Part shown: piece after piece, positions 1-36,136 of the stretch
Position numbering within the stretch: the stretch's first letter is position 1
Layout of the letters: each line of letters begins with the position of its first letter
NCBI GenBank assembly: GCA_964639605.1
Contig: CAZXEF010000001.1
Span: 1 to 47,244, forward strand
Direction of reading: 5' to 3'
DNA length: 47,244 nucleotides
From: an uncultured bacterium
GTDB taxonomy: Bacteria > Fermentibacterota > Fermentibacteria > Fermentibacterales > JCC-6
Program-made: the position numbers and the translations under genes
Notes under the pieces: generated by a model
What the model saw: only the letters and a program-made list of their open reading frames with translations
What the model was told of the DNA's origin: nothing
Databases searched by the model: none

Positions 1-306
1 AACGAGAAACCCAGCAAGCCCTATGATTTCAGGGTCGATAGGGGAACCCCTCTTGAAAATCCATATGTGATGCTGCGAGAAGCCCAGAGGAATTATGTAT
101 GTGATCAATACGAACAATTTTTCAACGATGTTATGCTGAACAGGAAAGCAGTGCAGGAATACCTTGAGCAGATTTTGCTGGCATACAGTGAATACGGGAT
201 GGTTAGGCTTTTCTGCTGGTGCATCCCATTGCGCTGCCACGCCGAGTCTATAGCCGCGTGGCTCAAGACCCAGATTGTGGAGGAAGTGCCCGGTGGGGTA
301 AAATGA
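1..306 (+). CDS. DUF4326-like protein, 5' end cut by window edge
   Basis: Frame 1 is open from nt 1 (NEKPSKPYDFRVDRGTPLENPY...) into ORF 67..306. 'RLFCWCIPLRCHAESIAAWL' resembles the CwC..CH signature I associate with DUF4326. Its stop overlaps the next start (ATGA at 303). Confidence 0.55.
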   Translation, partial: NEKPSKPYDFRVDRGTPLENPYVMLREAQRNYVCDQYEQFFNDVMLNRKAVQEYLEQILLAYSEYGMVRLFCWCIPLRCHAESIAAWLKTQIVEEVPGGVK

Positions 307-785
307 AAGAAGGAACGAGATCGGTATTATTCGGGTATCACAATCCGCTGATACATGGCCTAGCGGTTCTGATCGCGTGGCGCAGGGAGTATCATTCATG
401 GCCCAAATGGTGGGAATTGATATGCATTCTGCTGCACGACATAGGGATCTGGGGCAGGGATTACCTGAGCGACGATGAGGCCAAGAAGGGGCATGAGATG
501 GCTGGGGCTAGGCTGGCACTGGCCATAACGAGAAATGAGAGGGCCTATGTTTTGTGTTACACTCATGTCACATCGAATATTAGAAAGGGGAGATTATGGT
601 TGCCCGACAAGAAATCTTGGCTTATGCTGCCGAATTGGGTATGGTGGATATGCTGGTGGGTGGAACGCGGAAGGAAAATGGGACTGCAGACCCCGCCAGT
701 ATGGAAGAGGATAGTGGCAGATAACCTAGCAAAGAAGGAATATAGAGGGAGCCACCAACTATATATCGACCACAAGGGAGGATGA
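303..785 (+). CDS. HD-domain phosphohydrolase (candidate DatZ-like dATPase)
   Basis: ATG at 303 overlaps the upstream stop. The protein has an H...HD...D arrangement (NPLIH, 'ILLHDIG', later LPDK) and is about 160 aa. The DatZ idea rests only on the HD fold, the size and linkage to the PurZ-like gene. Confidence 0.5.
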   Translation: MKEGTRSVLFGYHNPLIHGLAVLIAWRREYHSWPKWWELICILLHDIGIWGRDYLSDDEAKKGHEMAGARLALAITRNERAYVLCYTHVTSNIRKGRLWLPDKKSWLMLPNWVWWICWWVERGRKMGLQTPPVWKRIVADNLAKKEYRGSHQLYIDHKGG

Positions 786-786
786 C

Positions 787-1047
787 ATGTTTACCAAGAA
801 CGAAAATGGAAAGTGGGTCCCCACTGGGAAAGATGTTATGTTCCCATGGGAAGTTCCCCCACTGGATGGGTGGTATATCGTCTGTCTCAACCATTACGTC
901 AGGGATGGGAATAAGCGGATCTTTTGCGCGATGAGCCGAAATGGAGTACTGATAGAGGCGAGGGGGGACGACACCAAATCCGTGTTCTGGCGACTGGTCA
1001 ATCAGGCTGAAGTCTGGAATAAAGTGTGGAAGACCGGGAGGGAATAA
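787..1047 (+). CDS. hypothetical protein
   Basis: 86-aa ORF with a GGGAGGA RBS just upstream (aagggaggatgacATG), tightly packed in the operon. Confidence 0.6.
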   Translation: MFTKNENGKWVPTGKDVMFPWEVPPLDGWYIVCLNHYVRDGNKRIFCAMSRNGVLIEARGDDTKSVFWRLVNQAEVWNKVWKTGRE

Positions 1048-1049
1048 CT

Positions 1050-1289
1050 ATGTTTAGTGGGCAAGATTTCCTTAACGTATATGACGAAGATTCTATCGTT
1101 GATAAGTACAAAGTGGAGGATTTCAGAAAGCACCCGAACGTCATGTGTCTGGTAGATACTACTAGCACAAGCGGGGAAGGGATGTGGATACTAGACCAGT
1201 GGAAGGAATTTTTGACAAACAAGGGAGTACCGTGGGTACACGTAGCGACCCGAACCAAAAATATGTTATGGAAGAGGTTATTAGCATGA
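1050..1289 (+). CDS. hypothetical protein
   Basis: ATG at 1050 lies 3 nt after the upstream stop and has a gggaggg RBS. I trimmed the start of ORF 1026..1289 to it. Confidence 0.55.
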   Translation: MFSGQDFLNVYDEDSIVDKYKVEDFRKHPNVMCLVDTTSTSGEGMWILDQWKEFLTNKGVPWVHVATRTKNMLWKRLLA

Positions 1290-1936
1290 GCAAGGACCTA
1301 TATGAGACACTGGGGGTAGACAGGAAAGCTACCAAGGAGACTATTAAGGCAGCATACCGAAAGCGCGCGATGGACACGCATCCCGACCGTGGCGGGTCAG
1401 AGGATGAATTTGCGCTAGTGTCGAAGGCATACCGGGTTCTGAGCGACCCGAGCATGAGGGGGAGATATGACAAAGGGGAGCCAGTTGATGGCACTATCAG
1501 CAGGGAGAGCTTCCTTGAGCAAGAGGCAATGAATGTCTTGTTAGCTACTCTCAATGCCCTGATGAGTCAGTTTATTTCTAATCCAGACAGGTTTGACATT
1601 ATCGGGCAGGCCAAGAACGATATAATCGAGAAAAGGAGGAGATGCATTGACGATTCTGGAAAGGTCAGCAGAGACCTATCGAAGATCAAAAAGGCTATCA
1701 GTAAAGTCAAATACACTGGCAGCAGGATAAATGCTGTGGAAGTGATGGTAAATCGAAAGCTGGAAGCAGCAGAGAAAGTCCTCAGTGACTTGAAGGATCA
1801 GGAAGAAATTTTATTGCTGGCAAGGGATATAATCAAGGACTACAAATGGATCGGCGAAGGAAATAACTCGCTGGATTCATTTCTCGGGGCTGCAACATCC
1901 TCGGCTTGGAACGACTTTGCGGATGGAAGATGGTAG
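1286..1936 (+). CDS. J-domain (DnaJ-like) co-chaperone protein
   Basis: 'DLYETLGVDRKATKETIKAAYRKRAMDTHPDRGG..FALVSKAYRVLSDPSMRGRYD' is a canonical J domain with an HPD motif. The start ATG at 1286 overlaps the upstream stop. Confidence 0.85.
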   Translation: MSKDLYETLGVDRKATKETIKAAYRKRAMDTHPDRGGSEDEFALVSKAYRVLSDPSMRGRYDKGEPVDGTISRESFLEQEAMNVLLATLNALMSQFISNPDRFDIIGQAKNDIIEKRRRCIDDSGKVSRDLSKIKKAISKVKYTGSRINAVEVMVNRKLEAAEKVLSDLKDQEEILLLARDIIKDYKWIGEGNNSLDSFLGAATSSAWNDFADGRW

Positions 1937-4545
1937 GAAGGCCGTTAAATAAGAACTGCACTTTATGCAGGCTTAGCGAGACCAGAAACCTCGTGGTTGG
2001 GGGGCAAGGCCCTAAGAAATGTGCCATAATGATGATAGCCGAGGCCCCCGGCGAGTTTGAGGATAGACACGGGACCCCGTTCCATCCTTCGGCGGCGGGC
2101 GGGGCAGAACTTGATCACATCCTCAACATAAATTCTTGTCCGCGCGAGAATGTCTATCTCACGAATAGTATTAAATGCAGGCCTCCCGGAAACAGGAATC
2201 CGCGCAAGGACGAGATTGATGCTTGCTCAGCCTATCTGGACTATGAGATAGATAGAGTTGACCCGCAAATAATAGCCACTATCGGAGGTTTCAGCACGAG
2301 GCGGGTACTGGGCGACGTGGACATGGAGACTGTGCACGGCATTCCCTTCCAGAAAAATGGAAGAATAGTAGTTCCGCTATATCATGTGGCTGCAGGATTG
2401 CGCGACAACAAGACCATGCTCAACGTATATGCAGATTTTAAGAGTCTGTTCGGAATAATACGGCAGGAGCGCCCATCTCGGCATATAGAAGATCCGTTTG
2501 CGGGCAAGGAGAGATACATCCGATGCCGGACTGCGGGAGACGTGCTGAGCGCAGTGGGCAATAGGAGTACTATAGCGGTGGATGTTGAGTGGAATACCAA
2601 CAACAATGAGCTATGGTGTATAACTTTCTCTGTCGAGCCGGGAACTTCCAACATGATAATGAGGGAGGATACCGAGGCGATATGGGCGCTGGACATGTTC
2701 GTTTCTAGCCCCAATATTGTGTCCATTATACACAATACATTGTCAGACTTGGGGATACTGGAGTCTGTGGGGATTCATCCGGCGCGCCCCTTCGACACGA
2801 TGATAGTGGCGTACCTTCTGCAGAATGAGCCTCAGGGATTGAAACCCCTAGCTTTCAGGCACTGCGGAATGAAGATGGGATCGTATGCAGAAGCGGTCGC
2901 CCCGGCTACGTATTTCAAAGCAATAGACTACTTGCATAAGGTGGTAGAGCGGAAATGGCCCAAGCCGGACCCGGTTCTGGAGTTTGTTCAGGGGGTGCCA
3001 AAGAAGCGCCAGCCGCAGGATATAGGGCGCAAGACCAGTGGCATTCTGCGCGATATGGTTTCGCCCAAGAAAGGAGATATAGACCCTCGCAAGCGCTGGC
3101 TCAATTTCGATCCACGCGAGAGAAAGATGGTTGAGGATGAGCTGGGGGTGATGGAGGAAGGATTTCTCGGGGATATAGACCCGGAAGAGGCCAAAACTTA
3201 CGCCTGTTCCGATGCTGACGCTACTATCAGGATATACCCTATAATGAAGAGACGGATAGAAGCGGAGGAGATGGTCGGCACTTTCGAGCGCGACATGCGG
3301 GCTGTGCCCATGGTAGCGGACATGATGAAGTATGGAATCCTCACTAACCCGCAGCATTTTGTAGAGTTTGGCGCCTATCTGCAGTCCAAGGAAGACGAAC
3401 TGCAGTCTAGAATCAGCGCAGAGGCGGGATGGGATGTGAATCCGGGATCGCCCCTGCAGATGCAGAAACTGCTGTACGACCAACTGGATTTGCCGAGATA
3501 TAAGAAGACGGATACTGGCTGGAGCACGGACGAGAAAGTATTGGCGCGTCTGGCGGATAAGCACCCAATCGTGCAGATGGTTAGGGATTATCGATCCTAT
3601 AACAAGCTGAGAACCAGTTATGCCGAGGTTATACCCAAGGTAGTGGACAAGCACAACCGAGTTAGGTCCAATCTTCGCGTGACGCGGACGGATACAGGAC
3701 GATTGTCGTCCGGGGAACCAGTGAACTTGATGGCTCAGCCTGTCCGAAGCGAAGAGGGATTAAAGATAAAGCGCGGGTATATTGCATCGCCGGGGTGCCA
3801 CTTGGTGGAAATTGATTACAGTCAGGCAGACATGAGGTGCTGCGCTCACGGCAGCGGGGATGAAAGGATGCTTCATATCTTCAGGTCCGGACTGGATATC
3901 CATAGCCAGACCGCCTCGGCCATGTTCAAACTGCCGATTAATCAGCTTGACGAGATGAAACATCGATACCCGGCGAAAAGGGTCGGGTTCGGCGTGCTAA
4001 ACGACATCTCGGCCAAGGGATTGCAACGAGAGATGATAGTTGGCGGGGCAAAGGAGAAAGATTGGCCTCTGTGGCTGTGCCAAGACCTGATCAACAAGTG
4101 GTTTGAGACCTATTCCGGGGTAGCCCGGTTCGTTAACCGAACCCGCGCAGAGGCCCGTCGGTACGGTTATGTGACCGATATGTGGGGAAGAAGAAGGTAT
4201 ATTCCCGGCATACGATCTTCTAGCAGGAGTGCTGTAGCAGAGGCCGAGCGCCAAGCCACCAATGCCCCATTCCAGATGGGGACCGCCGGGATAACAAAGG
4301 AAGCTATGGGCCGACTCGTCCCGGTGTATAGAGGGTATATAGATGATGGATATGTCTGCTACCCACTAATCCAAGTACATGACTCGCTGCTATTTGAAAT
4401 TCAGGACGAGATACTGGATGAAGTGGTGCCGAGATTTATGGAGATAATGGAAGGAGTAGCCCCGTTTATGAAAGTTCCACTAAAGGTAGATGCTAAGATA
4501 GGACTAAATTGGGGGGAGACAGAAAAATGGAAATACGGAGGTTAA
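1930..4545 (+). CDS. Family-4 uracil-DNA glycosylase domain fused to family A DNA polymerase with 3'-5' exonuclease
   Basis: N-terminus: CxxC, 'AEAPGEFEDRHGTPF', 'KCRPPGNRNPRKDEIDAC' and 'YHVAAGLR', which are the UDG4 Fe-S type motifs. Exonuclease motifs: 'VDVEW', 'HNTLSDL', 'YACSDAD'. Polymerase motifs: A 'EIDYSQADMR', B 'RYPAKRVGFG', C 'QVHDS'. The start is taken at ATG 1930, overlapping the J-domain gene stop by 7 nt. Confidence 0.9.
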   Translation: MVGRPLNKNCTLCRLSETRNLVVGGQGPKKCAIMMIAEAPGEFEDRHGTPFHPSAAGGAELDHILNINSCPRENVYLTNSIKCRPPGNRNPRKDEIDACSAYLDYEIDRVDPQIIATIGGFSTRRVLGDVDMETVHGIPFQKNGRIVVPLYHVAAGLRDNKTMLNVYADFKSLFGIIRQERPSRHIEDPFAGKERYIRCRTAGDVLSAVGNRSTIAVDVEWNTNNNELWCITFSVEPGTSNMIMREDTEAIWALDMFVSSPNIVSIIHNTLSDLGILESVGIHPARPFDTMIVAYLLQNEPQGLKPLAFRHCGMKMGSYAEAVAPATYFKAIDYLHKVVERKWPKPDPVLEFVQGVPKKRQPQDIGRKTSGILRDMVSPKKGDIDPRKRWLNFDPRERKMVEDELGVMEEGFLGDIDPEEAKTYACSDADATIRIYPIMKRRIEAEEMVGTFERDMRAVPMVADMMKYGILTNPQHFVEFGAYLQSKEDELQSRISAEAGWDVNPGSPLQMQKLLYDQLDLPRYKKTDTGWSTDEKVLARLADKHPIVQMVRDYRSYNKLRTSYAEVIPKVVDKHNRVRSNLRVTRTDTGRLSSGEPVNLMAQPVRSEEGLKIKRGYIASPGCHLVEIDYSQADMRCCAHGSGDERMLHIFRSGLDIHSQTASAMFKLPINQLDEMKHRYPAKRVGFGVLNDISAKGLQREMIVGGAKEKDWPLWLCQDLINKWFETYSGVARFVNRTRAEARRYGYVTDMWGRRRYIPGIRSSSRSAVAEAERQATNAPFQMGTAGITKEAMGRLVPVYRGYIDDGYVCYPLIQVHDSLLFEIQDEILDEVVPRFMEIMEGVAPFMKVPLKVDAKIGLNWGETEKWKYGG

Positions 4546-4548
4546 TGC

Positions 4549-4746
4549 ATGGGATACACATTCACGTTTGGGAAGCACCGTGGAGAGGATATCGAGGATG
4601 TTCCCACTAGTTATCTTCAGTGGGTATCGGAAAACTTTGACGACAACGAGGATAACGAAGCTTTGCTGGAGGAGGTTGACGAGGAGATTGATCGCAGGGT
4701 AAGATGTGGTCTGGAACGAGACGAGAGACCGTGGTGGGAGAGATGA
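4549..4746 (+). CDS. small DUF3820-like protein
   Basis: 'FTFGKHRGEDIEDVPTSYLQWV' resembles the F-GKH+G..l.dvp..Yl.W motif. There is a GGAGG RBS. Confidence 0.55.
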   Translation: MGYTFTFGKHRGEDIEDVPTSYLQWVSENFDDNEDNEALLEEVDEEIDRRVRCGLERDERPWWER

Positions 4747-4747
4747 A

Positions 4748-4999
4748 ATGAAAATAAAATTTATAGAGAAGGTTATACAGAACCAAAATAGGCCGGGACG
4801 TTCCCCTTGGGAAAGCAAGGAGATGACGCCAAAGCAATTTGACTTTTTACTGGGCGAAGTACCTGTTGAACTGTTGGAGAAACTAGACAGGGGAGGGGCG
4901 TCGATATTGATAGGAGATATAATAGCGGCTAGGCAAGAGGCGTATGCCTATTCGTTCCCGGACATAGGCGAGAACTTTCTAGACGATGGTAGCATATGA
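4748..4999 (+). CDS. hypothetical protein
   Basis: ATG at 4748 is 1 nt after the upstream stop. I trimmed the start of ORF 4706..4999 to it. Confidence 0.55.
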   Translation: MKIKFIEKVIQNQNRPGRSPWESKEMTPKQFDFLLGEVPVELLEKLDRGGASILIGDIIAARQEAYAYSFPDIGENFLDDGSI

Positions 5000-5295
5000 G
5001 CAGAACTGGAGCAGACAAACTTGAGATGTATAGAGGGCACTTCGACGAGCTTAAGGCTAGATTCAAAAAGCTGGACGGAGCGCTGGACGTGTACTTCCGT
5101 ATTTGTCCCTCAGACATAAGCATGTTTCTGTATTTGAAGAATGCCGAGCTTAGGGAGAAATTTGAAAATATGGAGGTGGATCAGAGGGTTGACACTGGGT
5201 CCAAACGCAAAAGGAGGCCCGAGTTTGGCGAAGGGACTACTGACATAAAGGACACTCCGTTCAGCGTTTTGGGGGAGGAGGAAGATGAAAAATAG
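4996..5295 (+). CDS. hypothetical protein
   Basis: ATGA start/stop overlap at 4996. 99-aa charged protein. Confidence 0.55.
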   Translation: MSRTGADKLEMYRGHFDELKARFKKLDGALDVYFRICPSDISMFLYLKNAELREKFENMEVDQRVDTGSKRKRRPEFGEGTTDIKDTPFSVLGEEEDEK

Positions 5296-5467
5296 CGCCG
5301 ATATGCACACTGTGTCTGACGCTTTCGAGATAGGGGAAGAATTGGAGTTGAAGGGTAAGGTTTTTGTGCTGCATGCTATACGCAAAAAACAAATAGTATT
5401 GAAACTAGCCCCATTACATAGACAACCAAACAACAAGGAGGAGCATTTTGAGGATAGGCAAATTTAA
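5285..5467 (+). CDS. hypothetical protein
   Basis: 60-aa ORF with a GGGGAGGAGGA RBS. Confidence 0.45.
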   Translation: MKNSADMHTVSDAFEIGEELELKGKVFVLHAIRKKQIVLKLAPLHRQPNNKEEHFEDRQI

Positions 5468-7004
5468 CATAGTCTGTGGTGCTCAGGCAGGCTCAGAGGC
5501 AAAGGGAAAATTCGCTGCGTTCTTGGCGGAGAAATACAGTAAAGAAATTCAGGCTATTGTCATGGCGGGATCTCCGAACGCGGGTCATACTGTGGTGGTG
5601 GACGGAAAGAAAACAGTTACATACCACCTTCCGGTCAGCGCAGTCGGATGCGACGCCCCGATATACTTGGGTCCTTCATCGCTAATTAACGCCGGGCTTC
5701 TCAGGAAGGAAATAGTAGACACCGGGATAGACCTAGAGAGAATAACCATAGACCCGAGAGCCGCAGTAATAACCGATGTACTGATCCGAGATGAGGAGCG
5801 GGCCGGTTTGTCGGATATAGGGTCCACGCTTCAGGGGATCGGCTCGACGCGGATTCTGAAGATGAAGAGAGATGGAACTATAACGCTGGCGCGTGACTGC
5901 GAAGAGCTTATCGATATGGGAGTGGTATCAGTAGAGCCAGTATCATTCTTCATCAATGATCTCCTAGATTCCAGAGAGACCGTGTTGTGCGAGATGACGC
6001 AGGGATTCGACCTAGACCTAGAGCACGGCATCGATCCAAGATATTGCTTTGCTAGAGGAACTAGGATACTTTTGGAAAATGGTAACTCAGTTCCAATAGA
6101 GGAGCTAGTTAGAGATAGAATACCCGCATCGGTCCTGTCCTACAACAGTACCACAGGTTTGCTTGAACCCAAAAAAGTGATAAACTGGTATAAAACTCCA
6201 CACGGGGGTGACTGGTATAGAGTTCACACAGATCTAGCCGTTGGGGATAAATCAGCTCCTAAGTGCACGGGGGGTCACAAGTATTATACCCAAAGGGGAA
6301 AAGTTGAGGCAAAAGATCTGATGGTAGGCGATCTATTGTACACAAACGAATATAGTTTAGAGGGGACCAACTGCCTTGCTACAGTGCGATGTACCGGAGT
6401 TGAAAAGCTGGCTCGCCTAGTATACGGCGTAAAATACAATATAGAGGTTGAGGATAATCATAACTACTTTGCGGGAAATCAGTTTGGGTACACTCTTGTT
6501 GGTAACTGTACAAGCAAGATGATCAATCCAGCCATGGCTATGGCCGAGGCCGGGGTCTCGCCCAAAATGGTGGGACACATCTATGGTGTGCTTAGGCCGT
6601 ACCCGATCCGGGTCAATAACCGGACTGGAAGCAGCGGGCCATATGCTGACGCAATCGAGCTGAAGTGGGAGAACGTGGCGAAGGGCTGCGGGCACCCCGA
6701 CCCGGACAATTTCGGTGAGATAACGACCACAACGAAACTGCCGAGGCGGGTATTCTCCTTCTCGTGGGAGAGATATGCTCATTTTATTCGGGTAGCGCGC
6801 CCAGACTTACTGTGTATGCAGTTCGCGAACTACCTGAATTGGGATGATTGCGGGAAGACCAACTGGTTCGATATGTCTGGGGCAGTCAGGGCTTTCGTAG
6901 AGACGCTGGAGAAACACGGCGGATGGGCGAGAGTGGCTTATGTCGGGACAGGGCCAGAGCACAAAGAGATGATTGATATGCGAGTGGACAGGGCAATTCT
7001 CTAA
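5448..7004 (+). CDS. purZ: Adenylosuccinate-synthetase family enzyme, PurZ-like, interrupted by an intein
   Basis: TTG start with an AAGGAGGAG RBS. The P-loop reads 'GAQAGSEAKGK' versus GDEGKGK in PurA, so Ser replaces the catalytic Asp. 'SPNAGHT' matches NAGHT, and 'QGFDLDLEHGIDPRY|..|CTSK' matches QG..LD.DHGTYPYVTS. The spliced length is about 364 aa. The family call is strong (~0.9). The PurZ versus PurA call is inference (~0.6). Confidence 0.65.
   Translation: MRIGKFNIVCGAQAGSEAKGKFAAFLAEKYSKEIQAIVMAGSPNAGHTVVVDGKKTVTYHLPVSAVGCDAPIYLGPSSLINAGLLRKEIVDTGIDLERITIDPRAAVITDVLIRDEERAGLSDIGSTLQGIGSTRILKMKRDGTITLARDCEELIDMGVVSVEPVSFFINDLLDSRETVLCEMTQGFDLDLEHGIDPRYCFARGTRILLENGNSVPIEELVRDRIPASVLSYNSTTGLLEPKKVINWYKTPHGGDWYRVHTDLAVGDKSAPKCTGGHKYYTQRGKVEAKDLMVGDLLYTNEYSLEGTNCLATVRCTGVEKLARLVYGVKYNIEVEDNHNYFAGNQFGYTLVGNCTSKMINPAMAMAEAGVSPKMVGHIYGVLRPYPIRVNNRTGSSGPYADAIELKWENVAKGCGHPDPDNFGEITTTTKLPRRVFSFSWERYAHFIRVARPDLLCMQFANYLNWDDCGKTNWFDMSGAVRAFVETLEKHGGWARVAYVGTGPEHKEMIDMRVDRAIL
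6045..6506 (+). mobile_element. Class-1 mini-intein (154 aa, no homing endonuclease domain) inside the PurZ-like gene
   Basis: Block A is 'CFARGTRILLENGNSVPIEELV', block B 'CTGGHKYYT', block F 'YNIEVEDNHNYFAG', and block G 'TLVGN' followed by the +1 Cys. Removing it restores the conserved 'HGIDPRY-CTSKMINPA' core of the PurA family. Confidence 0.85.
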
Positions 7005-7010
7005 GGGGGA

Positions 7011-7039
7011 TTGGCAAGGAGCGCCCGACGTGGTATAAT
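7011..7039 (+). promoter_or_regulatory. sigma70-type promoter with extended -10
   Basis: TTGGCA (7011-7016), a 17-nt spacer, then TGgTATAAT (TATAAT at 7034-7039). It sits in the gap after the PurZ-like stop. Confidence 0.6.
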
Positions 7040-7145
7040 GAAATTTTGGTGGGGGGCGGTCCCCTGCCTTGCCTTGGGTGAAGGCAGCATTCCCGGACTG
7101 AGTGGCGGGAGTGCTGCCCAAATTATGACAATAGGGAGGAAACGA

Positions 7146-7928
7146 ATGGAGGATAAACTAGTAGCCGACCCCAGTAACATCGGCATGGGAGTAACTGTAT
7201 ACAATAGATATCTGTTTGCCGTTCCTGTCAAGGGGATAATAACTAATACAAACGATGCTCTAAGCTGTTATCAGGTAATTTTTTGGACAGATAATCCCGG
7301 AGGAAAGAATGTCAATAAGCACGATGGAGAATACTTCTTCGTCAGAGAATGTATTGTCGGCAGAGATCTCCGTGGAGCAGGGGCAACTGAGTATATAGAG
7401 AAAAGAATGAAGAAGCTGGTGGGTATATGGAAAGCCAAAGGGCTGAACGGACTACAAGCCGAGCGCTGGATTACAAAAGAACCTGATAAGACTAAGGAAG
7501 CAATGATGGTCAGGGTAGAGTGCGGAGCTTGTGGCTGGGCGATTGAGCGGCCAGTAGAGGAACACGCAAATCATCCGTTTATAGCATGCCCGTCCTGTGG
7601 GAACTCTGATATCAAGGAAACATTTCGTGCGGACAAAGAGTGGGATAGCCACGAACGGGACAGTCTTCAATCACTGCGTCCATACCGGTTCGATCTGATC
7701 GACCCCAAGGCTATGCTATGTCTGGCGGGTATCATGCACGACGGATTAAAGGACCATGAACCTGATGGCTGGCGGGAACTTCCGATAGAGGATCACCTCA
7801 ATCACGCCGTGGGCCACATAACAGCCTACCGGGCCGGGAACCGGGAGCTTGACCACTTGGGCAGGGCCTTTGCCCGGTTGATGATGGCTGTGGCCGAGGA
7901 GAAGGAAGATGGGACGGAAAATGGATAA
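7146..7928 (+). CDS. Two-domain protein: Zn-ribbon-containing N-domain plus DUF5664 / dATP-dGTP diphosphohydrolase-like (MazZ-like) C-domain
   Basis: ATG 7146 has an AGGGAGGA RBS. 'CGACGW..(21)..CPSCGN' looks like a zinc ribbon. The C-terminus 'RPYRFDLIDPKAMLCLAGIMHDGLKDHEPDGWRELP..HLNHAVGHITAYRAGN..LDHLGRAFARLMM' fits the PR(F/W)DLIP...A..RH..A...G...HL pattern I recall for that family. Confidence 0.55.
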   Translation: MEDKLVADPSNIGMGVTVYNRYLFAVPVKGIITNTNDALSCYQVIFWTDNPGGKNVNKHDGEYFFVRECIVGRDLRGAGATEYIEKRMKKLVGIWKAKGLNGLQAERWITKEPDKTKEAMMVRVECGACGWAIERPVEEHANHPFIACPSCGNSDIKETFRADKEWDSHERDSLQSLRPYRFDLIDPKAMLCLAGIMHDGLKDHEPDGWRELPIEDHLNHAVGHITAYRAGNRELDHLGRAFARLMMAVAEEKEDGTENG

Positions 7929-7998
7929 GGAAGAGCTGTTCTGGGTATCAGTCGCTATTGCGGCTATAATAGTCAGCGTGGTATTGCCCCGATGCTGA
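7921..7998 (+). CDS. possible 25-aa membrane peptide
   Basis: MDKEELFWVSVAIAAIIVSVVLPRC. Its ATG overlaps the upstream stop region and it has a single hydrophobic helix. It is below the ORF-track size cut-off. Confidence 0.3.
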   Translation: MDKEELFWVSVAIAAIIVSVVLPRC

Positions 7999-8072
7999 AG
8001 AGACTTGTTGGGGCGGTACTGTGGACCATAATTATTGGGATGACGTTGTATAATCTGCGAGGGTTGTACTGA
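7992..8072 (+). CDS. possible 26-aa membrane peptide
   Basis: MLKRLVGAVLWTIIIGMTLYNLRGLY. It overlaps the previous mini-ORF through ATGCTGA. Confidence 0.3.
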   Translation: MLKRLVGAVLWTIIIGMTLYNLRGLY

Positions 8073-8437: not shown

Positions 8438-8848
8438 GTGACAAAGAAAAAAGCATCACTCAAACCCACAGTCCAGTGGGACGAAAAGACTATGACGGAA
8501 GTGGCTGTCAAGAAGGGGTTCAAGGATTTCGAGGCCGACCTGCTCAAGGGAATACAGCTCCGGGCCAAGGTCAAGGCCCTCAAGGGCGAGGTTGAGGGGT
8601 TGGAGGATCAGGCGAAAGCCCTGCTGGAGCCTGCGTTCACATTGCTGAAGACAACCCGGATAGGCACTAACGGGCTGGGCGTCCTGTCGTGGAGGAACGG
8701 ATCTTCCCCCGCGCGGGTTGATGGGGTGAAGGTGATAGAGAATCTGGTAACTGCAGGCGTAGACCCGACCGTGGCGCGCAAGGCAGTTGATGACGCCACG
8801 ACTCCCGGCACTCCGTATAAGTATTTTCAATTGACCAATAAAGGATAG
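8438..8848 (+). CDS. hypothetical protein
   Basis: GTG start with an AAGGAGGA RBS 6 nt upstream. 136 aa with a coiled-coil-like centre. Confidence 0.6.
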   Translation: MTKKKASLKPTVQWDEKTMTEVAVKKGFKDFEADLLKGIQLRAKVKALKGEVEGLEDQAKALLEPAFTLLKTTRIGTNGLGVLSWRNGSSPARVDGVKVIENLVTAGVDPTVARKAVDDATTPGTPYKYFQLTNKG

Positions 8849-8860
8849 GGGGAAAAGATT

Positions 8861-9748
8861 ATGAAATGTTTTTATCACTCAGCGGACTTGGACGGTCATT
8901 GTTCTGGAGCAATAATTAAAATGGCATTTCCTGAATGCGATATGATAGGGATCAATTATGGAGACGAATTTCCATGGGACGATATAGGGCCTGATGAATT
9001 AATCTTTATGGTTGATTTTTCCATTCAACCTTTTGAAGGAATGTTGAGGTTAAATCAATCCTGTGGAACGTTGATCTGGATAGATCACCACATATCAGCG
9101 ATTAAAGAATCTGAAGTTTACGGAAATAAATTCTATGGATTACAAAGGGATGGTATAGGAGCCTGTGCCTTAACATGGGAATATACATGGGAATATCTTA
9201 AATCCCTGGGGCATTTTTACACTGAAGATTTTCAAAATATTTCATCCGAAAGTGATCTCCCCACTTTTATAAAGCTTCTCGCTGAGTATGACGTGTGGAA
9301 CCATTCCGACCCAAGAACTCTTTCGTTCCAATACGGGATGAGACAGCAGCCCAATACATGGCCGGATAATCAGGATTTTTGGAACTCCTTATTTGATGTG
9401 GAAGAGGTCCAGAGAATTACCGAAATTGGCGGAACAATACTAAAATATCAATTAGCCGAAAATGAAAAATACTGTTCTGCCTGCGCCTTCGAAACAGAGC
9501 TGGATGGTCTGAAATGTATCGCAATCAATAAGATGCTCACCAACTCGCAGCTATTTAATTCTGTTTGGGACAGCCAAAAATATGATGCCATGCTTACTTT
9601 TGGGTGGCGTAAGGGAAAATGGACAGTATCCCTATATTCCGACAGGGATGATATTGATGTTTCGTCAGTGGCGAAGAAACATGGTGGGGGTGGGCATAAG
9701 GGGGCAGCCGGGTTTCAGTGCGAGTATTTACCATTCAATCTGACTTAG
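8861..9748 (+). CDS. DHH/DHHA1-family phosphoesterase (NrnA/RecJ-like fold)
   Basis: Motifs 'HSADLDGHCS', 'MVDFS', 'WIDHHIS' and the C-terminal 'HGGGGHKGAAGF'. The gene is visibly more AT-rich than its neighbours. Confidence 0.8.
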   Translation: MKCFYHSADLDGHCSGAIIKMAFPECDMIGINYGDEFPWDDIGPDELIFMVDFSIQPFEGMLRLNQSCGTLIWIDHHISAIKESEVYGNKFYGLQRDGIGACALTWEYTWEYLKSLGHFYTEDFQNISSESDLPTFIKLLAEYDVWNHSDPRTLSFQYGMRQQPNTWPDNQDFWNSLFDVEEVQRITEIGGTILKYQLAENEKYCSACAFETELDGLKCIAINKMLTNSQLFNSVWDSQKYDAMLTFGWRKGKWTVSLYSDRDDIDVSSVAKKHGGGGHKGAAGFQCEYLPFNLT

Positions 9749-18119: not shown

Positions 18120-18331
18120 TGGCTGGAATAACCAAAGAGCATATTGGAAATAGCATACAACTGTATTTTCGGGGGGGCAGCGCCGAGGGAATATATGCTC
18201 GCGCCGGGGAGAAAGAGGATCTATCGTACCTGTCAATATATGCCCCGACAAAAGAAGCCATATTAAAGGTGTGTGATGACCTCATCGAGTCAATTGAAGA
18301 ACGTAAAAGACAGTTAACCGAAGGAGAATGA
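18119..18331 (+). CDS. hypothetical protein
   Basis: GTG start abutting the upstream stop. Its own stop overlaps the TerL start. Confidence 0.45.
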   Translation: MAGITKEHIGNSIQLYFRGGSAEGIYARAGEKEDLSYLSIYAPTKEAILKVCDDLIESIEERKRQLTEGE

Positions 18332-19893
18332 TGCCATACTGGACCCCGCAAATAGGACCTCAGGCTGCGGCAGCGACGTGCCCCGCCGACGAAACCTTCT
18401 ATGGTGGAACAAGAGGTGGAGGCAAGAGCGATACCGCGATAGGGCGCCAAGTGCGCGGGGCCGAGAGGTATGGGCCGCACTGGAATGGATTATTCATACG
18501 ACGTAAGTACAAGGACTTGGCCGAGGTCCGTAGGAGATTTGATGAGCTGATAGCTCAGGGAATGCCCGCGATACGGGTCGGAGGAGAGAATCAGACAAAC
18601 TATGTCAGGTTTACGGATGGCCCCGCCACAGGAGCTGTGATAGTTCTGGCGGCTATCCTTAAGCTTGAGATGGCAGATGCATTTCAGGGGCACCAGTACA
18701 CGGAAATTACCATCGATGAGGCCCCGACGATACCTTTCATAGGGCAGTTGATAGACCGGATGAAGGGGTGTTTAAGGTCCCCACATGGGGTGCCGTGCCG
18801 GATGTTCCTGACCGGGAACCCCGGAGGATCGGGCGCTTCGCAGGCCAAACAGATGTATATACCAGAAGTAGATGGCGGGATGAGTCCCGTGGGCGACAGC
18901 GAAATATACAAGCTGGACGACGGAACTACTAGGGTATTCATTCGATCCACCGTGTATGACAACGCAATTCTGTGCGATAACGACCCAAAATATGTGCAGA
19001 GGCTGCAGTCTATTAAGGACCCCGTTCTGCGCAAGGCTTGGCTGGACGGAAGATGGGATGTATTCATCGGGCAGGCCTTCAACTTCACCGAAAGGCATAT
19101 CATCGACCCGATATGGCCTATACCGGAATTTGTGCCACTATACATGACATTCGACTGGGGCTTCGGAGCGCCGTTCCACATAGGATGGTGGTGGGTTGAT
19201 CAGTACAATCGACTGGTGCTGTTCGCTGAGTGGTATGGGTGCGAAAAGGGAAAGGCCAATGTAGGACTTAGGCTGGAAGACCCGAAAATCGCCGAGGGGA
19301 TACTTGAGCGCGAACAGAAAATGGGGATACTGGGGCGCAACATCAAGCGTCTGGTAGGGCATGATAGTTTCAACAAAAAGCCGGACTACAAGGGCGGAGG
19401 ACAGGGGGATTCTACAGCGGATGAATTTATAGCCTACGCATCCAGACCGGAAGTAATTGAAAAGTATGGCAGCAAGATAAACCTGAATTTGCTTCCGGGA
19501 GACCCCAACCGAGAATTGAAGATCAGGCAATTCAGAAACCGGCTGATGCTGCCGGACGACCCCGACGAGAGACCTATGCTGGTGGTGTACAGGACATGCA
19601 AGGATTTCATCAGAATAATACCGGACCTATGCACAGACGAGCTCACAGGAGAATACTTGGAGAATGGGCAGGAGCTGCATCCATTCGACAGCGCGTGCCA
19701 TATATGCATGGACAGGCCGGTGGGGCTGGACGAGATGAAAATAGCAAGGGAGCGCGAGGAACGGCGTCTGGAGCAGATCAGATCGCAGCTTGACGCCCCG
19801 TCTAGGGCAGCCGCAGACGAATTTGCGAAGATGGTTCAGGACCTGAAGGAGAAATCCGAGGAAAGGTTCGACGTTGGAATTTTCATGAACTAG
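18328..19893 (+). CDS. terL: terminase large subunit
   Basis: Walker A 'GGTRGGGKSD' and Walker B 'TEITIDEAP'. It is 521 aa and lies just upstream of the portal-size gene. Confidence 0.85.
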   Translation: MMPYWTPQIGPQAAAATCPADETFYGGTRGGGKSDTAIGRQVRGAERYGPHWNGLFIRRKYKDLAEVRRRFDELIAQGMPAIRVGGENQTNYVRFTDGPATGAVIVLAAILKLEMADAFQGHQYTEITIDEAPTIPFIGQLIDRMKGCLRSPHGVPCRMFLTGNPGGSGASQAKQMYIPEVDGGMSPVGDSEIYKLDDGTTRVFIRSTVYDNAILCDNDPKYVQRLQSIKDPVLRKAWLDGRWDVFIGQAFNFTERHIIDPIWPIPEFVPLYMTFDWGFGAPFHIGWWWVDQYNRLVLFAEWYGCEKGKANVGLRLEDPKIAEGILEREQKMGILGRNIKRLVGHDSFNKKPDYKGGGQGDSTADEFIAYASRPEVIEKYGSKINLNLLPGDPNRELKIRQFRNRLMLPDDPDERPMLVVYRTCKDFIRIIPDLCTDELTGEYLENGQELHPFDSACHICMDRPVGLDEMKIAREREERRLEQIRSQLDAPSRAAADEFAKMVQDLKEKSEERFDVGIFMN

Positions 19894-23607: not shown

Positions 23608-24951
23608 ATGGGACAATTAGATACCACAGCATTGGCGTACCAGTTCAAACGTACGTATGGTGATATGATCACCGACATTTTTCCACGGCAGATTATGACA
23701 TATAACCTGTTCCAGACCTCGGCCAGAAAGGCCAAGTTCAGAACAGGCGGGGCAGGCTTCTACTTCTCAGCAAGGCAGGCGGATGTTGAGGGAGTTGGTG
23801 GCCGCGCCGAGAACGCATATTTGCCTGAGCCTCTGTCCGGAGACGGCGTACAGGGGGTCATCACGCCGAAACTTAATTATGCCGTAGTGCGACTTTCCGG
23901 TCTCGCTATGGAAGCTGGCAAGGCGGATCTGGATTCCTTCGTGGATGCCCAGACCGACGCGACGCAGAACGCGTACAATTCCCTTGTCAGCGACCTCAAC
24001 AGGCAGTGTCACGGAGACGGGTATGGGTTGCTTGCAACACTGTCCACTACCTCAGACACCCTGTCTACTTCTGCTACATGGACAATAACCTGTAACAACG
24101 ACAGAGGAGTCAGATACCTCAAAAAAGGTATGGTAGTTGACTTCTACAACAGTACTGCTATCGACCAAGGTGCTGTCGCGTCGAGGATCTCTTCGATAGA
24201 TCCTATCAACAAAACTGCCGAGATGGAAGCTGTTTCAGCCGCTGGGGCAGGTGGTTCTGCCTATCAGGCATACCACCCCTTGTCAGCAGCCAGAACCTAT
24301 ACAATCGCGGCTGAAACAATAGCTTCAGGATCTTTCGTGGTCCGGTACGGGGCAAGGCTTGCTGCGCACGCAACATCCAATGCCAATTATGAGTTGGCAG
24401 GACTTGAGGCTGCATACGACGATGGGACCAACCTTGCTACATACGAAGGTATTACCATCGCCAATGACCCCGAGTTCAAGGCCAATATAATGAGCAACAG
24501 CGGAGTACCAAGGGATCTGTCAATAGACCTTATGCTTGCCGCAGTAGATATGACCGCAGCTCGGTCACAGAATACTGTTGGGCTTATCCGGATGGGTATC
24601 GGCCAGAGACGGAAGTACTATGGATTGATGGCCCCGGATATCAGGTATAGCGCAGGGCAGCTCATGGGCGGATACGAGAAACTTTCGTTCAGCCAGAATG
24701 GAGCCATCTCCATGGTGGTTGACCCTGTTACTCAGCCGAACACAATATACTTCGAGCCTATGGACGCGCTGAAGAGATACGTGCTCGCGGATATTGGATG
24801 GGGCGGATTTGACCCGAACAAGATGCACTGGAGAGAGGACTATGATCAGGCGACCATGTTCCTGAGAATATACTCCAACCTTGGAACTGAAGAGCGAAAT
24901 GCTCTAACCAAGCTGGCTGATCTCAGGGAACCGAGCAATATGCCGTTCTAG
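23608..24951 (+). CDS. major capsid protein
   Basis: 447 aa with a strong RBS, immediately after the scaffold gene and followed by a hairpin. The call rests on position. Confidence 0.7.
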   Translation: MGQLDTTALAYQFKRTYGDMITDIFPRQIMTYNLFQTSARKAKFRTGGAGFYFSARQADVEGVGGRAENAYLPEPLSGDGVQGVITPKLNYAVVRLSGLAMEAGKADLDSFVDAQTDATQNAYNSLVSDLNRQCHGDGYGLLATLSTTSDTLSTSATWTITCNNDRGVRYLKKGMVVDFYNSTAIDQGAVASRISSIDPINKTAEMEAVSAAGAGGSAYQAYHPLSAARTYTIAAETIASGSFVVRYGARLAAHATSNANYELAGLEAAYDDGTNLATYEGITIANDPEFKANIMSNSGVPRDLSIDLMLAAVDMTAARSQNTVGLIRMGIGQRRKYYGLMAPDIRYSAGQLMGGYEKLSFSQNGAISMVVDPVTQPNTIYFEPMDALKRYVLADIGWGGFDPNKMHWREDYDQATMFLRIYSNLGTEERNALTKLADLREPSNMPF

Positions 24952-34885: not shown

Positions 34886-36136
34886 ATGACTAGAGCTATA
34901 ACGGATAATCCAGAACGGATGGGGACTGAGGCAGCTCCGGGAGTTCCGTGGGAAATTGCCAAAAATACTGATGGCCCCGGAATTGACTGGGACCCAAGTA
35001 TGTTGCACAGTAGAGTATCACCGGAGACTCTTGACGAGTTTGCGAGAGTAGACCCTGAAAATGCCGACGCTATAATGGATAGCTACGGCTATAGTAGTAA
35101 GGACGTGCCAAGAAACCCAGAGAAACCCCGACCGACGCAAGCTCCAGCAGCATCCCAACCCGTGCGTGCTGGGCTTAAGCCCCCGGTGGATACTTCCAAA
35201 GCGCCAGACTATTCTGCTTCGGGGAGGGACAGGTTTGCTGTGGCTATAAAGCAACAAATAGGATTCGACCCAGTGAGACTGGACCCGTACAAGGAAGTAC
35301 AGAAAGCGGAGGCCAGAATGCTGCCAAAGATATTTAATCAATTCTTCGGCGGCAAAGTAATGTGGCAGGACAGGGAGCGCCTAAATGCCCAGCAAAAAAA
35401 GGCTTGGGAAGAGGAGCACCTGAAATTTCGCTCCCACGTATTCAACAGAGCAGAACAGCTTAAGGAAAACGGAATAGCGATAATGAGAGAGGGATTAGAC
35501 AGCTTCGACAGAAAGGCGAAGGAGTACTCCGACATAATGTCAAAGGTTGAGAAGCAGATCGAGGCAGACCGAAAGGCCAGAGAAACTGCGCCTCAGATGA
35601 TTGGTATAGTTCCTCTGGGGAAAAATCAGAAGACAGTCCACGTATGGGATAGAGCGACTGGAACTTATGTCGACACTGGACGCCCTTGGTCTGATACCTC
35701 TACCCCACAGATAATTCAGCAGATGGACTTCGAGGACAAGATACTTGGAAATTATGAACCGAACCAGAAGTTAGACCCGGTTGATCTGCAGGCTATGAAC
35801 GATAGACGCGTCACAAGGGGGATGCCAAATATCGTCGAGGTTCAGGTCAAGGCCCCCATCAAAAGGTCCCGATTCGGGATTGACTGGTTGGCCAAGGACG
35901 AAAAGGGAGAATATCAGTACCTCGAAGAAGGTTCGCCAGAACTTGAGCAGGCCCTAGCGGAGGGCGGAACGCGAACTGACAGTATCAGGGAAGATGTTGG
36001 TGGAAGCGCCGAGGCTTCTCCAACCGGGTCTTCTGCCCAAATTTTAGAGCAGTTTCCGACGGCGTACCAAGCCACGGACGGGAAGTGGTATTACACGGAT
36101 GATAATGGTCAAACCTATCGAATAGAGGAAGAATAA
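34886..36136 (+). CDS. virion-associated protein (internal-protein-like by position)
   Basis: 416 aa, tightly coupled to both neighbours. Confidence 0.5.
   Translation: MTRAITDNPERMGTEAAPGVPWEIAKNTDGPGIDWDPSMLHSRVSPETLDEFARVDPENADAIMDSYGYSSKDVPRNPEKPRPTQAPAASQPVRAGLKPPVDTSKAPDYSASGRDRFAVAIKQQIGFDPVRLDPYKEVQKAEARMLPKIFNQFFGGKVMWQDRERLNAQQKKAWEEEHLKFRSHVFNRAEQLKENGIAIMREGLDSFDRKAKEYSDIMSKVEKQIEADRKARETAPQMIGIVPLGKNQKTVHVWDRATGTYVDTGRPWSDTSTPQIIQQMDFEDKILGNYEPNQKLDPVDLQAMNDRRVTRGMPNIVEVQVKAPIKRSRFGIDWLAKDEKGEYQYLEEGSPELEQALAEGGTRTDSIREDVGGSAEASPTGSSAQILEQFPTAYQATDGKWYYTDDNGQTYRIEEE

Follow-up and report, generated by a model that had tools for sequence, protein, structure and literature searches.

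The DNA considered here is a contig of 47,244 nucleotides from an uncultured bacterium assembly (CAZXEF010000001.1 in GCA_964639605.1), called the window at its full length, and the subject is a gene at 5448-7004 for a PurZ-type adenylosuccinate synthetase that is interrupted by an intein and followed by a gene of the DUF5664 family. The window is part of the genome of an uncultured tailed phage. Its first 9,750 nucleotides (nt) form a block of plus-strand genes for replication and nucleotide metabolism, and this region is a phage replication and nucleotide module, whose replication block holds purZ, the DUF5664 gene and a family A DNA polymerase (PolA) fused to a uracil-DNA glycosylase (UDG). 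An earlier, sequence-only reading of this DNA had picked out four open reading frames (ORFs) here as a candidate module for replacing adenine by 2-aminoadenine (Z). All four are present on the plus strand and at the positions it gave, and the family matches of the named ORFs are far beyond chance, except for the weak HD call at 303-785.

The 518-amino-acid (aa) product of 5448-7004 matches PF00709 (E=3.9e-26), together with intein/Hint models, and PHROG 1211, annotated as '2-aminooxy adenylosuccinate synthetase' (E=1.3e-46). Once aa 200-353 are removed the spliced extein counts 364 aa, which falls in the length class of PurZ and its archaeal-like relatives (about 340-390 aa), and it aligns end to end with 6FM1. 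The sequence-only reading was thus correct on the family, on the P-loop GSEAKGK, on the serine in place of Asp13 and on a length of about 364 aa after splicing. Among solved structures, the extein resembles phiVC8 PurZ (E=1.7e-32) and S-2L PurZ (7e-32) best, followed by P. horikoshii PurA (1e-25), PurZ0 (7VF6, 5e-17) and then bacterial PurA. A profile built from 34 members of the clade to which the enzyme belongs gives 198 bits for phiVC8 PurZ, 172 for S-2L PurZ, 171 for archaeal PurA, 110 for PurZ0 and about 104 for bacterial PurA. The curated models left the choice between PurZ and PurA undecided, and we therefore examined the residues and the tree.

For the residues, 20 clade members were aligned by MAFFT with seven phage PurZ/PurZ0 sequences and two of PurA. 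Each of the 20 carries Ser16 (S23 in S-2L, Asp13 in PurA), Thr272 (T273 in S-2L, T262 in phiVC8, Gly in PurA), Arg238 in the PurZ loop insertion (the equivalent of R244) and Asn307 (Q308 in S-2L, N297 in phiVC8), at which PurA and PurZ0 have Asp; Phe305, Tyr308, Trp253 and Tyr245 are likewise conserved in all of them. Asp13 is conserved in 99% of true PurA (PMC12884076), and the roles of the T273 and R244 equivalents and of the donor pocket were described for PurZ (PMC8342488) and also in the metaGPA preprint. The whole donor-base pocket, Q304-F305-A-N307-Y308, is shared by 20/20 clade members, and by its composition, an amide with Phe305 and Tyr308, it is the ATP/dATP-type donor pocket of PurZ and not as the guanine-reading Asp of PurA. 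In a neighbour-joining tree with 200 bootstraps, for which the archaeal outgroup sequence of P. horikoshii PurA was rebuilt from the 5K7X alignment, the clade is recovered at 100%, and PurZ, PurZ0 and the clade group together at 100% with the P. horikoshii and Salmonella PurA outside; PurZ0 branches outside PurZ plus the clade at 77%. The spliced protein, for which the sequence-only reading had proposed such a phylogeny, hence groups with PurZ/PurZ0 and not with PurA in this tree with two PurA outgroups. The position within bacterial PurA, which that reading had named as contrary to its proposal, was not seen in this tree. Judged by sequence, the synthetase passes nearly all the tests that define PurZ. 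Its residue signature, read with the known biochemistry of PurZ, predicts that it would convert dGMP, aspartate and ATP or dATP to N6-succino-2-amino-dAMP (dSMP).

This enzyme does not stand by itself. A tblastn search with the extein returned 217 phage records, all below 34% identity, and no PurZ of a sequenced phage is more than 33% identical to the clade. In the protein database, 271 clusters were found at E<=1e-5, many of them on contigs of 40-60 kb. A scan of 185,579 cellular genomes gave only one locus of the clade, L049 (JAUXIH010000023.1), an 11-kb contig with purZ and then DUF5664 in a metagenome-assembled genome (MAG) of Dehalococcoidia; it looks like a phage contig binned into that MAG, and is at best a weak hint of the host. 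The scan supplied no archaeal PurA sequences. From these searches the clade appears to be a deep and separate PurZ lineage, large and known from metagenomes only. The related loci compared below are 38 in number, from IMG/VR, Logan and one MAG, and 34 of them have enough sequence downstream of purZ.

The insertion in the synthetase covers 154 aa (aa 200-353, CFARGTR...YTLVGN) and is followed by a +1 Cys. It passes the curated cut-offs of both models for intein splicing regions, TIGR01445 for the N-terminal region (30.7 against 24.5) and TIGR01443 for the C-terminal region (21.3 against 15.6), and the blocks of a class 1 intein are present: Cys1, TGGH (TxxH) at intein residue 75, the terminal Asn and the +1 Cys. 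Once the element is excised, the junction reads ...LEHGIDPRY|CTSKMINP..., and the conserved YCTS motif is restored. The element lies between Tyr199 and Cys200 of the extein, the equivalents of Y203 and C204 of S-2L PurZ, which line the dGMP pocket (PMC8342488). Three relatives (P0002-P0004) have homologous inteins at the identical site, of which two contain a LAGLIDADG domain. P0005, which is 70% identical, has no intein there, and the alignment with it displays a clean, exact insertion. The intein of the window holds no homing endonuclease. Because two of its same-site relatives carry LAGLIDADG and P0005 is empty, we regard it as a mini-intein of a homing intein family, and we infer that it splices to give the 364-aa PurZ. 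The searchable literature yielded no paper mentioning an intein in PurZ or in adenylosuccinate synthetase, which is absence of evidence only. In the same genome, a 793-aa DinG/XPD-like helicase (Helicase_C_2; L054 1-1159 / L055 18804-21185) also contains an intein, matched by PF14890; with that of PurZ, the genome therefore has at least two.

The gene directly 3' of purZ, at 7146-7928, matches PF18909 (formerly DUF5664) with E=3.9e-10 and 40 bits, against a gathering score of 27. The DUF5664-like C-terminal domain proposed by the sequence-only reading is thereby upheld, but its further label, a MazZ-like hydrolase, is not, as neither the S-2L MazZ nor the DUF550 (PF04447) profile matches and Pfam reports only PF18909. 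The arrangement is a conserved one: a DUF5664 gene lies directly 3' of purZ in at least 26 of the 34 clade loci with enough downstream sequence, and each of the 22 purZ-adjacent partner proteins tested passes the PF18909 threshold. The stand-alone DUF5664 protein of phage Wayne converts dATP, dGTP and dUTP to monophosphates, and the DUF5664-DUF550 fusion of SH-Ab 15497 is a dATP/dGTP pyrophosphohydrolase (PMC12884076). By analogy with these enzymes, the product of 7146-7928 is a candidate dATP/dGTP pyrophosphohydrolase, which would supply dGMP and remove dATP. A search of the PDB with the DUF5664 profile of the clade gave no match and we therefore assign no fold. The N-terminal 170 aa of the protein (7146-7655) form a domain of no assigned family with a Cys4 zinc ribbon (CxxC...CxxC), and this domain has counterparts only in L013 and P0127. 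In other clade members DUF5664 is joined to N-terminal domains of other kinds (NDT-like or DUF7768), as reported for MazZ-1 fusions.

The polymerase upstream of purZ joins three domains in the order family-4 UDG (about nt 2002-2409; PF03167, E=1.4e-22), 3'-5' exonuclease (about nt 2536-2877; PF01612, E=1e-13) and family A polymerase (about nt 3364-4518; PF00476, E=7.6e-95). The UDG domain, absent from the sequence-only reading, scores 126.2 bits with TIGR00758 (family 4 UDG) at a cut-off of 125.3, and its motifs are readable in the translation: the four cysteines of an Fe-S cluster (CxxC...C...C), AEAPG and HVAAGLR. The bacterial Pol I model NF004397 gives 400 bits, and the two DpoZ models give 94 bits for a cut-off of 500 (NF038380) and 59 for a cut-off of 350 (NF038381). 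The protein is consequently in neither DpoZ clade, and the earlier equation of this PolA with DpoZ has to be dropped. The exonuclease and polymerase motifs are intact. In motif B of the window polymerase (motifs B and C, 3910-4545), Asn takes the place of the helix-O tyrosine, Klenow Y766, which is said to be strictly conserved otherwise; in both DpoZ clades the residue is Phe. Most PolAs of this phage group likewise have Asn, the loci concerned being L001, L007, L022, L024, L026, L030, L033, L036 and L039. Motif C reads HDS instead of HDE, as in the DpoZ of phiVC8, RAP15 (Wayne-type) and Ghobes. The changes in motifs B and C may be a convergent adaptation of PurZ-linked polymerases. Selectivity for Z over A has been ascribed to the interplay of polymerase and exonuclease, with no single sequence determinant known (PMC8599892). 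The UDG-PolA fusion recurs in about 18 related loci and would be the replicase of the phage. The DnaJ gene directly upstream overlaps the start of the PolA gene, and the closest relative of the window, L001, is arranged alike.

Other genes of the known Z clusters were searched with home-made profiles for DatZ (4 sequences), S-2L MazZ, DUF550 and Dut, which found no match in the window, in the rest of the genome or in the 38 clade loci; one DatZ profile match at E=0.004, on a holin ORF, was rejected as noise. A Pfam census of 290 further ORFs, out of the 446 that neighbour purZ in the clade loci, contained no HD_3/YfbR-like domain and no dUTPase, and gave scattered NDT-like domains (Nuc_deoxyrib_tr, DUF4406, DUF1937) and one MazG.

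The 160-aa protein encoded at 303-785 contains the sequence LLHDIG and, taken alone, has no match in Pfam, PHROGs, NCBIfam or the PDB sequences. A word-indexed search found four close homologues only; when 1.84 billion representatives were searched with a profile, 387 were recovered. Near-invariant across 115 members of this family are H13, H18, H45-D46, H64, H88 and D102-K103, and this six-ligand H/HD/H/H/D motif appears to be of the kind found in dinuclear HD enzymes. It takes the family profile to recover the HD label; this profile reaches the HD oxygenase TmpB (6NPA) at E=2.5e-5, and PF01966 (HD) is matched by 15 of the 115 members. AlphaFold2 models, with a mean predicted confidence (pLDDT) of 75 from 5 sequences and 93 from 115, give an all-helical fold, for which the Foldseek matches are non-significant (E>=1 against the PDB, 0.1-0.3 against BFVD); at their top stand PhnZ, PgpH, Ddi2 and phage 'HD-motif phosphohydrolases'. 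The protein may be a remote relative of the HD superfamily, and we put its name no more strongly than 'HD-like'. That it is DatZ, as the sequence-only reading had it, was rejected: it has no HD_3/YfbR-like (PF13023/PF12917) match and no DatZ profile match, its ligand pattern differs, and its family occurs also in phages with no purZ within 10 kb. The DatZ structure 6ZPA is absent from its PDB sequence and structure matches.

The features of the locus are collected in Table 1. A 63,987-bp contig of the same phage was assembled from run SRR8557488, and its ends overlap by 30 nt, for which reason we take the genome to be about 64 kb, assembled as a circle. A megablast search of nt 1-8000 against 50,697 phage records gave no match, and therefore none of the cultured phages is closely related. 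A 136-aa ORF at 8438-8848, for which no family match was obtained, keeps its place beside the purZ-DUF5664 pair in at least 11 of the related loci, on one strand or the other; it may belong to the conserved part of the module, or may simply be typical of the phage group. The DHH phosphoesterase gene behind it was considered as a module member and rejected, as related PurZ loci do not conserve it; a DHH gene is also found near the HD-like homologue of an unrelated phage contig, L052. Just upstream of the HD-like gene lie genes for an AAA_24 ATPase, an ERCC4 nuclease and a DUF4326 protein, along with that for the flavin-dependent thymidylate synthase ThyX, about 3.5 kb before window position 1 in this genome (L054 4565-5266). 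Many loci of the PurZ clade also have ERCC4 and AAA_24. Further along the window, a single ORF of 2,359 aa at 36136-43215 has no family match on record; its product presumably belongs to the tail or is a fibre. At 32-34 kb and at 44-46 kb the G+C content falls to about 0.40-0.42, compared with about 0.51 elsewhere.

Table 1. Genes and gene parts of the window discussed in the text.
Feature	Position (nt)	Strand	Matches and remarks
HD-like protein, 160 aa	303-785	+	Orphan; possible nucleotide phosphohydrolase
DnaJ-domain (J-domain) protein	1232-1936	+	PF00226, E=1.5e-19
UDG-exonuclease-PolA fusion	1930-4545	+	PF03167, PF01612, PF00476
PurZ N-extein, aa 1-199	5448-6044	+	P-loop QAGSEAKGK, Ser16; ends ...GIDPRY
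Mini-intein, 154 aa	6045-6506	+	TIGR01445, TIGR01443, PF14890, PF07591
PurZ C-extein	6507-7004	+	CTSKMINP... to stop; Thr272, PurZ-type insertion with Arg238, QFANY donor-base pocket
DUF5664 protein, 260 aa	7146-7928	+	PF18909, C-terminal, about nt 7680-7907
DHH/DHHA1 phosphoesterase	8861-9748		PHROG 4771, E=1.5e-39; downstream of module
Large terminase	18328-19893		
Major head protein	23608-24951		

How could such a locus place Z in DNA? The PurZ precursor would be translated with the 154-aa mini-intein inside its dGMP pocket, and splicing of ...GIDPRY to CTSKM... would release the 364-aa enzyme. Spliced PurZ would then join dGMP and aspartate, the phosphate coming from ATP or dATP, and the N6-succino-2-amino-dAMP so formed would be carried on to dZTP by PurB and kinases of the host. 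The DUF5664 protein would act on both sides of this balance, turning dGTP into dGMP, the substrate of PurZ, and dATP into dAMP, by which the competitor is removed; this step is proposed from family membership, from the conserved adjacency and from the characterised enzymes of Wayne and SH-Ab 15497. The UDG-exonuclease-PolA fusion would replicate the genome. Since no DatZ is found, exclusion of dATP would have to rest on DUF5664, on the use of dATP by PurZ itself, as demonstrated for S-2L (PMC8342488), and possibly on the HD-like protein. Restriction-resistant (dZ) contigs from aquatic samples are enriched in PF00709, PF18909, PolA/exonuclease, UDG and NDT domains (10.1101/2025.10.22.683976). 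From this set the window has PF00709, PF18909, PolA and UDG, and its closest relative L001 has NDT as well. The association of UDG with dZ contigs, otherwise puzzling, would be accounted for by the UDG-PolA fusion.

A PurZ-type synthetase next to a gene of the dATP/dGTP-pyrophosphohydrolase family makes this a candidate Z-genome phage, and we think it probable that the module works and serves to put Z into DNA. The Z-genome proposal of the sequence-only reading survives in this form, carried by the synthetase and its DUF5664 neighbour through sequence, residues, tree and synteny, and without its DatZ and DpoZ equivalences: all four classes of the Z cluster had been claimed, and those of the HD protein and PolA fail. 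Several observations weigh against the module being a working one. With the curated PurZ model NF038379 the score is 173 bits, where 300 are required, and with NF003295, for archaeal PurA, it is slightly higher, 176 bits; both scores are far below the respective cut-offs. NF038379 derives from the PurZ of cultured phages, with which the clade shares at most 33% identity. Ala14 stands throughout the clade (20/20) where an aromatic residue, Y21 in S-2L and F12 in phiVC8, adjoins the 2-amino group of guanine, a contact credited to backbone atoms of the residue at the Y21 position (PMC8342488). The neighbour-joining tree has a thin outgroup of one archaeal and one bacterial PurA. The DUF5664 sub-family found here is divergent, lacking the KYG motif and having fewer acidic residues than the characterised enzymes, and the whole genome of about 64 kb has no DatZ, MazZ, DUF550, Dut or NDT. 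The penultimate residue of the intein is Gly (Ser in P0004) and not the usual His. Finally, sequence cannot by itself establish that the DNA of this genome contains Z. The marginal lead of the archaeal model, with a C-terminus that aligns well with P. horikoshii PurA, would fit an ordinary archaeal-type adenylosuccinate synthetase, kept as an auxiliary purine gene by a phage whose DNA has normal adenine. We hold this to be very improbable: in 20/20 clade members Ser replaces Asp13, conserved in 99% of true PurA (PMC12884076), and Asn replaces the guanine-reading Asp of the NKxD-like motif, the clade joins PurZ/PurZ0 at 100% bootstrap, and the gene is tightly linked to one of the dATP/dGTP-pyrophosphohydrolase family. 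The penultimate Gly and the deleted homing endonuclease could also be signs of a gene in decay, with a mini-intein no longer competent for splicing and a PurZ inactive in this phage. Yet the frame of 518 codons is unbroken, none of Cys1, TxxH, the terminal Asn and the +1 Cys is missing, the catalytic residues of the extein are all conserved, and the penultimate G or S before the terminal N is common to all four inteins of this allele, whose host proteins are only about 56-60% identical, so that decay too is a most unlikely account.

If PurZ makes the Z precursor, the question of the HD-like protein follows. It could be a functional replacement of DatZ, an HD phosphohydrolase of dinuclear type by which Z-phages devoid of DatZ break down dATP or dADP. 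The conserved HD-type ligand set and the remote HD homology agree with this, as does the position of the gene: its family is present in 11 of the 38 PurZ-clade loci, directly upstream of UDG-PolA in five, and in L026 and L030 the order is purZ-DUF5664-HD-like-PolA, that is, the datZ position. In L001 the same slot, between ERCC4 and DnaJ-PolA, holds an NDT-like gene, of the family of the dAMP hydrolase DmtZ, and no classical DatZ was seen in the genome or among the 290 neighbouring clade ORFs. However, the ligand pattern is that of phosphodiesterases and oxygenases (PgpH, PhnZ, TmpB) and not of YfbR/DatZ, the DatZ profile and Foldseek results noted above lend no help, and contigs that carry the 387-representative family outside the PurZ clade (L002-L004, L050 and L052; 35-133 kb) have no purZ within 10 kb on either side, one further look-up having given only a 1.4-kb contig too short to judge. 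A DatZ role therefore seems to us rather doubtful. The same distribution, with family members near helicases and PrimPol and no purZ, and with the L052 copy 6 kb from an Apyc1-like gene, would suit a protein unrelated to Z, a general early-phage hydrolase of HD type acting for example on signalling nucleotides or in anti-defence, which came to lie here by chance; in structure it comes nearest to cyclic-dinucleotide phosphodiesterases and HD oxygenases. The repeated placement of the family beside purZ-DUF5664 or PolA in the PurZ clade pulls the other way, and we consider the case for an unrelated role to be evenly balanced.

To our knowledge, Z-genomes are the only natural case in which a canonical base is completely replaced by one that alters the strength of the base pair. 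Nearly everything in the enzyme sets known for this, PurZ/DatZ/MazZ/DpoZ and PurZ0/DutZ/DmtZ, stems from phages in culture. The present locus anchors a third PurZ lineage, apparently abundant and metagenome-only, with no DatZ, with DUF5664 alone and with a UDG-PolA fusion. PurZ would be a new host protein for inteins, and its intein a possible post-translational switch on base modification. The PolA, the minimal pyrophosphohydrolase and the HD-like protein are candidate new parts for the engineering of dZ-DNA. A bolder proposal is that this uncultured clade assembled its Z toolkit independently, for a third time: a PurZ gated by splicing, given the place of the intein within the dGMP pocket; DUF5664 as sole pyrophosphohydrolase; the HD-like protein, or the NDT-like proteins of sister phages, in the place of DatZ; and a third, convergently Z-adapted polymerase, the UDG-PolA with Tyr766 changed to Asn. 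We regard this proposal as a whole as unlikely.

Set beside the known systems, the intein is of a familiar kind in an unfamiliar place. Like the inteins of phage ribonucleotide reductase, helicase, terminase and polymerase genes, it is of class 1 (Cys1, terminal Asn, +1 Cys) and inserted in a substrate-binding motif, and as there, a LAGLIDADG homing endonuclease is found in its relatives; the difference lies in the host protein, PurZ. The HD-like protein resembles DatZ (an HD/YfbR-like dATP triphosphohydrolase, 6ZPA) in being small and all-helical, in its HD motif and, in two related loci, in its position, but it has no detectable homology to DatZ, HD_3 or YfbR-like proteins, it has a six-ligand pattern of dinuclear type and its family is not restricted to purZ phages. 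The window PolA shares with DpoZ the family A polymerase, an active-looking 3'-5' exonuclease, a gene a few kb from purZ, the replaced helix-O tyrosine and the HDS of motif C, whereas bacterial Pol I is by far its nearer match (400 bits, against 94 and 59), and it has helix-O Asn in place of Phe and carries the N-terminal family-4 UDG.

The synthetase itself has in common with the PurZ of S-2L, phiVC8 and SH-Ab 15497 (7ODX, 6FM1) the fold family, the length of about 360 aa, Ser at Asp13 and Thr at T273, the YCT motif of the dGMP pocket, the loop insertion with Arg and the ATP-type pocket (N/Q-F-x-N/Q-Y), as well as a gene placed beside one for a dNTP pyrophosphohydrolase with PolA nearby. It differs from them in being only about 32% identical and below the NCBIfam PurZ cut-off, in belonging to a deep, metagenome-only clade, in the Ala at Y21/F12, in its intein and in having no DatZ partner. 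With the PurZ0 systems of Arthrobacter phage Wayne and Gordonia phage Ghobes (PurZ0, DutZ and DmtZ, with or without DUF5664) the window shares the lack of DatZ and the stand-alone DUF5664, and sister phages carry NDT-like genes, one of them an NDT-DUF5664 fusion. In contrast to these systems, its synthetase is PurZ-like, with Asn and not Asp as donor-base residue and with PurZ0 placed outside at 77% bootstrap, there is no Dut, and the PolA is unrelated to DpoZ-1. The accessory set, a PurZ-type synthetase with a stand-alone DUF5664 and without DatZ, DUF550/MazZ or Dut, matches neither published type, and the PolA that accompanies it forms a third lineage.

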